64,000 nt of DNA from Escherichia coli (GTDB lineage: Bacteria > Pseudomonadota > Gammaproteobacteria > Enterobacterales > Enterobacteriaceae). Positions 29,920-30,850 of this stretch are shown here, in pieces. The stretch lies in the NCBI RefSeq assembly GCF_003334765.1, contig NZ_QOWT01000005.1. One strand, written 5' to 3'. The notes beneath the pieces are model-generated. The model saw only the letters and a list, made by a program, of their open reading frames with translations, was not told the origin of the DNA and ran no database searches. Positions within the stretch are counted from its first letter, which is position 1, and every line of letters begins with the position of its first letter. The translations under genes and the position numbers were made by a program.

Positions 29920-30061
29920 CGACAACTCCTTATAAATCTTCACCTTCAGGCAGATCGTCAAAATAACTGATGATCATCATCATTGTTATCCGGGTTCTTA
30001 CTCCGCCGAACAAGCGTATTGTGAGGATATCAAAATGACACCTTTAGTTAAGGATATCATC

Positions 30062-30850
30062 ATGTCTTCAACACGTATGCCAGCATTGTTTTTAGGTCAC
30101 GGTAGTCCGATGAACGTGCTGGAAGATAATTTGTATACCCGCAGCTGGCAGAAGTTGGGGATGACATTGCCACGCCCGCAAGCGATTGTGGTGGTTTCGG
30201 CTCACTGGTTTACCCGTGGAACAGGAGTGACCGCGATGGAGACGCCGCCCACGATTCATGACTTTGGTGGCTTCCCGCAGGCGCTGTACGATACGCATTA
30301 TCCTGCTCCGGGTTCGCCTGCGCTGGCACAGCGTCTGGTTGAGCTGTTAGCGCCGATCCCGGTGACGCTGGATAAAGAAGCCTGGGGCTTTGACCACGGC
30401 TCGTGGGGCGTGCTGATTAAGATGTATCCTGACGCTGATATCCCGATGGTGCAGTTGAGTATCGACAGTAGCAAACCTGCCGCCTGGCATTTCGAAATGG
30501 GGCGCAAACTGGCAGCGCTGCGAGATGAAGGAATAATGTTGGTCGCCAGCGGTAACGTGGTGCATAACCTGCGCACAGTGAAGTGGCACGGTGATAGTTC
30601 ACCGTATCCGTGGGCGACGTCGTTTAATGAGTATGTGAAAGCGAATCTGACGTGGCAAGGGCCAGTGGAACAACATCCTCTGGTGAATTACCTCGACCAT
30701 GAAGGTGGCACGTTATCGAACCCAACGCCAGAGCATTATTTGCCGTTGTTGTATGTGTTAGGTGCGTGGGATGGGCAGGAGCCAATTACCATTCCGGTTG
30801 AGGGTATAGAAATGGGCAGCCTGAGTATGCTGTCGGTGCAGATAGGCTAA
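30062..30850 (+). CDS. ygiD: 4,5-DOPA dioxygenase extradiol-like protein
   Basis: Two in-frame ATGs (30035 and 30062), each preceded by AGGATATCA; 30062 gives MSSTRMPALFLGHGSPMN... (262 aa); 30035 would add 9 residues. Confidence 0.8.
   Translation: MSSTRMPALFLGHGSPMNVLEDNLYTRSWQKLGMTLPRPQAIVVVSAHWFTRGTGVTAMETPPTIHDFGGFPQALYDTHYPAPGSPALAQRLVELLAPIPVTLDKEAWGFDHGSWGVLIKMYPDADIPMVQLSIDSSKPAAWHFEMGRKLAALRDEGIMLVASGNVVHNLRTVKWHGDSSPYPWATSFNEYVKANLTWQGPVEQHPLVNYLDHEGGTLSNPTPEHYLPLLYVLGAWDGQEPITIPVEGIEMGSLSMLSVQIG

Follow-up and report, generated by a model that had tools for sequence, protein, structure and literature searches.

Two in-frame starts of unequal conservation in Escherichia coli ygiD and an extended -10 reading of their shared 9-mer on the zupT strand

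The 5' end of the Escherichia coli gene ygiD contains two in-frame start codons, ATG1 and ATG2, each of them preceded by the same 9-mer, AGGATATCA. The reading considered probable here is that ATG2 is the ancestral start and ATG1 a younger one of E. coli, that initiation takes place at both codons in K-12, and that the identity of the two 9-mers comes from the opposite strand, the one that carries zupT. The ATG1 triplet would be older than its reading frame and would have lain inside a conserved ATCAAAATGACA block placed beside the ygiD promoter. A 1-nt insertion in Escherichia would have changed the spacing of the two triplets from 26 to 27 nt and put ATG1 in frame, and two point changes (GGTGAT to GAGGAT) would have made the sequence before ATG1 resemble the one before ATG2. 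Ribosomes that start at both ATGs in K-12 would then yield YgiD chains of 271 and 262 aa. The exact 9-nt identity would reflect not the needs of ribosome binding but an extended -10 element on the opposite strand, with copy 2 as the main zupT -10 and copy 1 probably driving a second, weaker start of zupT. Of this reading, the sequence, the pattern of conservation and the published TetRP class, zupT starts and Reg-Seq element are shown, whereas we infer that ygiD transcription begins near 30029, that copy 1 acts as a promoter and that neither isoform has a function of its own.

The gene order in the window (the whole 64-kb stretch of DNA that was analysed) is ribB, yqiD, zupT (-), ygiD (+) and ygiC (-). 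The region is identical to the K-12 MG1655 sequence, with no differences over the 301 nt compared, and a window position p corresponds to position 3212469 - p of NC_000913.3, a conversion that was checked. Features are collected in Table 1. As an earlier note on this DNA had described, AGGATATCA is read twice, each time 2 nt before an ATG. Both ATGs belong to the frame of the 271-aa ORF and the frame is open between them; the residues MTPLVKDII by which the two forms were said to differ are confirmed by the reading of the ORF.

Table 1. Features at the 5' end of ygiD and in the adjoining zupT promoter region (window positions)
Feature	Position	Strand	Remarks
Small ORF in the zupT leader	29930..29983	-	TAA stop overlaps the zupT SD TAAGGAG
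YhaJ (LysR-type regulator) box TCA-N7-TGA	29958..29970	.	PMC5031710; conserved in 24/24 genera
zupT transcription starts (two, mapped) at 30046/30045 and 30018/30017, within the 5' region of ygiD	30017..30046	-	PMC6131387
Predicted ygiD -10 TATTGT (TAnnnT)	30017..30022	+	Prediction; T30017, A30018 and T30022 invariant in 24 genera
Predicted ygiD transcription start	30029	+	Prediction; invariant A, 7 nt after the -10, 65 nt from the YhaJ-box centre
Repeat copy 1, AGGATATCA	30024..30032	+	GAGGA, candidate SD1, 7 nt before ATG1
Repeat copy 1, minus-strand reading TGATATCCT	30024..30032	-	Candidate extended -10, secondary zupT promoter
ATG1, start of the 271-aa form	30035..30037	+	K-12 RefSeq b3039, NP_417511.3; PDB 2PW6 construct
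Repeat copy 2, AGGATATCA	30051..30059	+	UAAGGA, SD2, 7 nt before ATG2
Repeat copy 2 as codons K-D-I of the long YgiD form	30051..30059	+	
Repeat copy 2, minus-strand reading TGATATCCT	30051..30059	-	Extended -10, main zupT promoter
ATG2, conserved start of the 262-aa form	30062..30064	+	PGAP WP_001320780.1
ygiD ORF, 4,5-DOPA extradiol dioxygenase	30035..30850	+	Short form from 30062

The two ygiD starts are a documented case and a known annotation conflict. The K-12 RefSeq record opens ygiD at ATG1 (816 nt), PGAP opens it at ATG2 in other E. coli (789 nt), and the crystal structure in PDB entry 2PW6 is that of the 271-aa chain. In Table S3 of Nakahigashi 2016, which reports tetracycline ribosome profiling (TetRP), ygiD is entered with the long annotation of 2006 and the short one of 2014, a shift of 27 nt (PMC4909307). 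The automated result was 'no change' from the 2006 (ATG1) start; the class given after manual inspection, in one line of the supplementary table, was '4. multiple', that is, signal at multiple sites (PMC4909307). The proposal of the earlier note that two plausible in-frame initiation sites exist is borne out by this signal at both ATG1 and ATG2, and the initiation-site ribosome profiling it had named as a check was already published in the form of TetRP. No N-terminal peptide of either YgiD form was found in the TetRP N'-peptide table or in the TRAINSPOTTER supplements. Within the TetRP supplements ygiD appears in Table S3 alone and is absent from the N'-peptide table (PMC4909307), and it is absent from the TRAINSPOTTER supplements as well. 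The interest of the case is mainly one of annotation, and no open biological question depends on the dual starts of ygiD. The disagreement between the K-12 reference and PGAP on the YgiD N-terminus is explained by a conserved start at ATG2, an extra E. coli-specific start at ATG1 and profiling signal at both.

The SD candidates upstream of the two codons have duplex energies of -7.9 kcal/mol (SD1, UGAGGA) and -5.9 kcal/mol (SD2, UAAGGA), both at a spacing of 7 nt; 7.5% and 20% of random 20-mers, respectively, equal or beat these energies. SD2 forms six Watson-Crick pairs and its spacing is ideal. Judged on the sequence alone, SD1 and SD2 are of comparable, moderate strength.

The comparison with relatives separates the two codons. 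In the scan of species-representative genomes a YgiD homologue was present at 80 loci, none of them from E. albertii, E. fergusonii or Shigella, and the alignment comprised 24 enterobacterial genera. All the Enterobacterales homologues begin at the ATG2 position, behind (A/G)AGGA(T) and with the same spacing. ATG2 and AGGATA are invariant in the 24-genus alignment, CA is conserved in at least 90%, and the base between them varies. Among the approximately 80 species loci, no species besides E. coli has an ATG that lies in frame nine codons upstream and is followed by an open frame. The conservation of both starts in relatives that is expected of a functional pair is therefore not observed, the in-frame ATG1 being confined to E. 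coli; in 79 other species ATG1 is missing or lies out of frame. Five Citrobacter loci, Enterobacter asburiae and Escherichia sp. ESNIH1 carry the ATG1 homologue 26 nt upstream and out of frame, and many genera have TTG, CTG or other triplets at this position or lack it. The 27-nt spacing results from a 1-nt insertion (alignment column 102) that occurs only in E. coli and in L004, a sister Escherichia lineage whose ygiD DNA is 89% identical. GAGGA before ATG1 is likewise confined to E. coli and L004; Citrobacter has GGTGAT or GATGGT there.

The L004 lineage keeps the 9-mer and ATG1 but reads ATG ACA CCT TAA, and it cannot make the long YgiD because this in-frame TAA lies between the two ATGs. 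The stop variant was found in 0 of 5,426 complete E. coli genomes (best match 97.5%), and 5069 of 5425 E. coli genomes show no difference from one another over the 81 nt that surround the starts. From its conservation across the Enterobacterales, set against a long frame found in E. coli only, ATG2 is by comparative evidence the ancestral start and the long frame a recent E. coli-specific addition. The description of the two starts as equally plausible is not supported, given the invariance of ATG2 and its SD in 24 genera, the restriction of the in-frame ATG1 to E. coli and the TAA of L004. The two ygiD sites are non-equivalent, one ancestral and universal, the other young, restricted to Escherichia and with an 'RBS' that may be missing from the transcript.

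Other arrangements are seen around the same position. In Enterobacter asburiae (L009:1475-1504) and at similar loci, the ATG at 26 nt opens a 9-codon out-of-frame ORF (ATG ACA CCT TAT GTA AGG ATA TCA CCA TGA) whose stop overlaps the ygiD start as ATGA, in a coupling-like manner. Several genera have TTG at the ATG1 position, inside TTGACA. Between the window (29920-30061) and L004 (1359-1500), the zupT-ygiD intergenic identity is 97%, against 91% in the zupT flank and 89% in the ygiD flank, which fits either a dense overlap of regulatory elements or local recombination.

The repeat itself is not beyond chance expectation. The 9-mer has just 2 copies in the window, where 0.32 would be expected, and at least 2 copies occur in 5 of 100 shuffles; exact non-overlapping 9-mer pairs no more than 40 nt apart number 20 in the window against about 9.5 in first-order Markov simulations. 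In a repeat search the matching stretch grows to 14 nt, with an identity of 86% (AGGATATCAAAATG and AGGATATCATCATG). Outside this 14-mer, the 27-nt units agree at 5 of 13 positions past it and at 4 of 13 upstream. The term 'duplicated' that had been applied to the module was not sustained: the likeness of the two 27-nt units stops after 14 nt and, relative to Citrobacter, copy 1 results from two point changes (GGTGATATCA to GAGGATATCA) together with the 1-nt insertion that sets the frame. As the units differ outside the 14-mer, there is no sign of duplication by descent, and a tandem duplication of this kind was rejected in view of the lack of similarity past the 14-mer and by the point changes that the outgroups display.

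The reverse complement of the 9-mer, TGATATCCT, has the form TG-n-TATCCT of an extended -10 element. Both copies read TG-A-TATCCT on the minus strand, where both also match the motif TGnTAnnnT, and the hexamer TATCCT agrees with the consensus at 4 of 6 positions. In copy 2, across the 24-genus alignment, TATCCT is invariant, TG is conserved in at least 90% and n is A or T. Since an SD would need only AGGA, a TGnTATCCT promoter fits this conservation better than an SD does. That the zupT promoter role explains conserved bases which the SD does not need is the most informative new point of the analysis; the extended -10 role of the 9-mer was missed by the earlier note.

Published transcription data place zupT starts next to both copies. 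Supplementary Data 2 of SMRT-Cappable-seq gives zupT two forward-strand transcription starts, 3182423 and 3182451 (PMC6131387). The table is apparently 0-based, as thrL is given at 147 there and at 148 in Reg-Seq (PMC6131387, PMC7567609). After correction both starts fall on an A, at window positions 30045 and 30017 of the minus strand. They are 28 nt apart and, at these corrected positions, lie 6 and 7 nt downstream of the copy 2 and copy 1 hexamers, which end at 30051 and 30024, respectively; with the uncorrected positions included, the distances are 5-6 and 6-7 nt. Reg-Seq mutagenised positions -115 to +45 around the zupT reference start 3182433 and listed a single expression-promoting element, labelled '-10', at -23 to -13 in 9 of 9 conditions (PMC7567609). 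This element corresponds to MG1655 3182410-3182420, TGATATCCTTA, which is copy 2. No -35 element was called for zupT (PMC7567609), as is expected for an extended -10 promoter. For copy 2, the role of a functional extended -10 in the main promoter of zupT is certain. Copy 1 lies inside the Reg-Seq mutagenised region and was not called as a promoter element (PMC7567609); from the one dataset of transcription starts, it is plausibly the extended -10 of a weaker second zupT promoter. The E. coli-specific changes in copy 1 convert TATCAC into TATCCT, which creates the -7 T of the hexamer, and on the other strand GTGA into AGGA.

On the ygiD strand, a box for the LysR-type regulator YhaJ makes the promoter hydroquinone-inducible and dependent on YhaJ (PMC5031710). 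The mutation positions C50 and T42/T41 of that study fit 29958-29970 when counted from the zupT ATG at 29919. LysR-type activated promoters have a T-N11-A recognition site some 65 bp before the transcription start. The distance of approximately 65 bp between this box and the ygiD start is counted from the predicted, not a mapped, start, and no ygiD transcription start was found in the published datasets of transcription starts examined; a sigma-factor SELEX study likewise offered nothing of relevance. If transcription begins at A30029, AGGA at 30024-27 would be off the mRNA and ATG1 would stand behind a leader of about 6 nt without an SD. The label 'RBS' given to copy 1 is accordingly in doubt, as the predicted start, deduced from the conserved TAnnnT at 30017-22, falls downstream of the first AGGA.

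Some further candidates in this region were set aside. A predicted RNA hairpin at 30014-30080 (+) pairs the SD1 region (30014-30030) with ATG2 and the first codons (dG -18.9 kcal/mol, z = -2.7, 0 of 200 shuffles folding as well). It was rejected since it can form only in transcripts that begin upstream of about 30014, at odds with the predicted promoter, and since it is partly a by-product of the palindromic GATATC core. The plus-strand promoter-like sequence ATGACA-17-CATCAT at 30035-30063 is not significant (1 found, 0.6 expected), and Rfam returned only sub-threshold eukaryotic snoRNA chance matches.

The evidence on the two codons admits readings in which a single one of them counts. It is rather unlikely that only ATG2 matters, the first AGGA being promoter DNA (ygiD discriminator and zupT P2 -10), the YhaJ-dependent mRNA starting at about 30029, ATG1 giving no more than weak and accidental initiation from the 6-nt leader, and the 271-aa form being noise. 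Such a view accords with the TAnnnT and +1 A that are invariant in 24 genera, with a YhaJ-box spacing that fits a LysR-type promoter, with the choice of ATG2 by PGAP, with an E. coli strain that has an IS3-family element between ATG1 and SD2, and with the long frame, which is not found beyond E. coli and which a TAA interrupts in L004 even though the 9-mer and ATG1 are kept there. It has to face, on the other hand, the TetRP signal at ATG1 and an automated call that kept the 2006 start, the use of ATG1 in the current K-12 RefSeq, and the fact that the ygiD transcription start is a prediction. The K-12 annotation and the 2PW6 construct, both of the long form, together with the TetRP 'no change' call, point in the opposite direction, to ATG1 as the main start in E. 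coli and ATG2 as mostly an internal methionine whose 'SD' is conserved for the zupT promoter. TGnTATCCT would indeed account for AGGATA-n-CA, and ribosomes coming from ATG1 would be expected to occlude SD2 and ATG2. We regard this reading as quite improbable: manual inspection of TetRP saw the ATG2 signal too, SD2 has its six Watson-Crick pairs and ideal spacing, ATG1 would have no SD if transcription starts at 30029, and ygiD is retained with ATG2 alone both in L004 and in the strain that has the IS3 insertion.

The identity of the two 9-mers can be weighed apart from the use of the codons. A coincidence of two unrelated weak SD-like sequences is possible, if not favoured; about ten chance 9-mer pairs per 64 kb and two or more copies of the 9-mer in 5% of shuffles are consistent with it, as are the ATATCA of copy 1, which predates the E. 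coli-specific change, and the absence of a copy 1 effect in Reg-Seq. It leaves aside two zupT starts that are 28 nt apart and each about 6-8 nt downstream of a copy, and an E. coli-specific change in copy 1 that creates the -7 T of the hexamer and AGGA together. We tentatively put forward, with no greater confidence than in coincidence, that the 9-mer is a two-strand element, SD (AGGA) for ygiD and extended -10 (TGATATCCT) for zupT, and that in the Escherichia lineage the two point changes, which created the second copy, and the 1-nt insertion gave rise to a second zupT promoter (start at 30017) and to a new in-frame start with an SD. If true, nature would here offer a compact case in which a short series of mutations makes both a promoter and a translation start. 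The preferred reading remains that of an ancestral ATG2 and a younger ATG1, both used in K-12, with the 9-mer identity coming from the zupT strand.

The genes infB, clpB and cheA are classic cases of dual in-frame starts, in which both proteins are shown to exist and their functions differ. From these ygiD departs: no role of its N-terminal tail is indicated, the upstream start is species-specific and, in the TetRP and TRAINSPOTTER supplements, neither protein N-terminus turned up. Dual in-frame initiation was observed by TetRP in 28 genes overall, and arnB, yiiE, ascG and tdcD share Table S3 with ygiD (PMC4909307). These genes and ygiD are alike in having two in-frame starts few codons apart and profiling signal at both.

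Initiation at a 5'-proximal AUG is also known from mRNAs that are leaderless or have a short leader. ATG1 would resemble the short-leader starts if the mRNA begins at the predicted A30029, being then 6 nt from the 5' end and without an SD. It is unlike a true leaderless mRNA in that the AUG is not at +1, the start itself being a deduced one.

Sigma-70 promoters with an extended -10 (TGnTATAAT) are not expected to have a -35 element. The zupT promoter is similar to this class in its TG-A-TATCCT, in starts about 6-8 nt downstream and in the lack of a -35 in Reg-Seq (PMC7567609). It differs from the typical members in the 4/6 hexamer, in mutational support that concerns copy 2 only and in its overlap with the SD and start codon of a divergent gene. 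Bidirectional promoters with a shared symmetric -10 and 18-bp spacing have reportedly been described by Warman et al. in 2021. The zupT/ygiD region is like compact divergent promoters in that some 60 bp hold the interleaved elements of both genes and in that the zupT leader runs antisense through the promoter and the first codons of ygiD. It is unlike the bidirectional class in that the predicted ygiD start at 30029 (+) and the zupT P2 start at 30017 (-) are 12 bp apart, with adjacent -10 boxes.

This leader is about 100-126 nt long and also covers the YhaJ box in the antisense direction, and zupT and ygiD may be subject to mutual transcriptional interference. The arrangement calls for caution in engineering, as the SD and start region of ygiD is the zupT promoter. 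Owing to this shared region, expression of zupT is likely to be altered when the 5' end of ygiD is edited (by a deletion, a tag or a change of the RBS), and the same holds in the other direction.

The leader also contains a small ORF, unannotated in NC_000913.3, which is the TetRP intergenic start site no. 255 (PMC4909307). The N-terminal motif MM(K/M)I(I/F)xxF(E/D) is found next to ygiD across the Enterobacterales, also at loci that lack a neighbouring zupT. The cause of its conservation is ambiguous, as the YhaJ box TCA-N7-TGA falls on the conserved core. MMKIIRKFE as a conserved small protein was not retained, since the constraint of the YhaJ box on the DNA explains the conserved core at least as well.

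At the protein level, an AlphaFold2 model built on 39 sequences has a mean pLDDT of 91.5; residues 1-11 of the long form are below 50 and the first strand begins at about residue 17. The low pLDDT of the tail is expected, as the homologues are without that segment. In this model the MTPLVKDII tail is placed outside the conserved fold, and it is probably disordered. There is no indication of a targeting signal or of a separate function of the tail.

Individual E. coli strains depart from the common arrangement. In E. coli SCPM-O-B-12142 (L087:1545-2899), ATG1 and SD2 are split apart by an IS3-family element that sits at approximately 30043, after codon 3 of the long form, with an apparent 3-bp CCT target duplication; ygiD is still annotated from ATG2. 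The long ygiD frame is lost in this strain and the main zupT -10 (copy 2) is separated, only copy 1 remaining next to zupT. SCPM-O-B-12142 is thus a natural test strain for the start and promoter hypotheses. The O157:H7 and O55:H7 genomes listed have one mismatch each in the 81-nt region, and in EDL933 (L085, O157:H7) the mismatch, T30020C, turns TATTGT, the predicted ygiD -10, into TATCGT. E. coli strains also differ in the right flank of ygiD: dsbI lies 3' of ygiD in E. coli A36 (L002:2247-2901), whereas K-12 has ygiC there (window 30888-32048).
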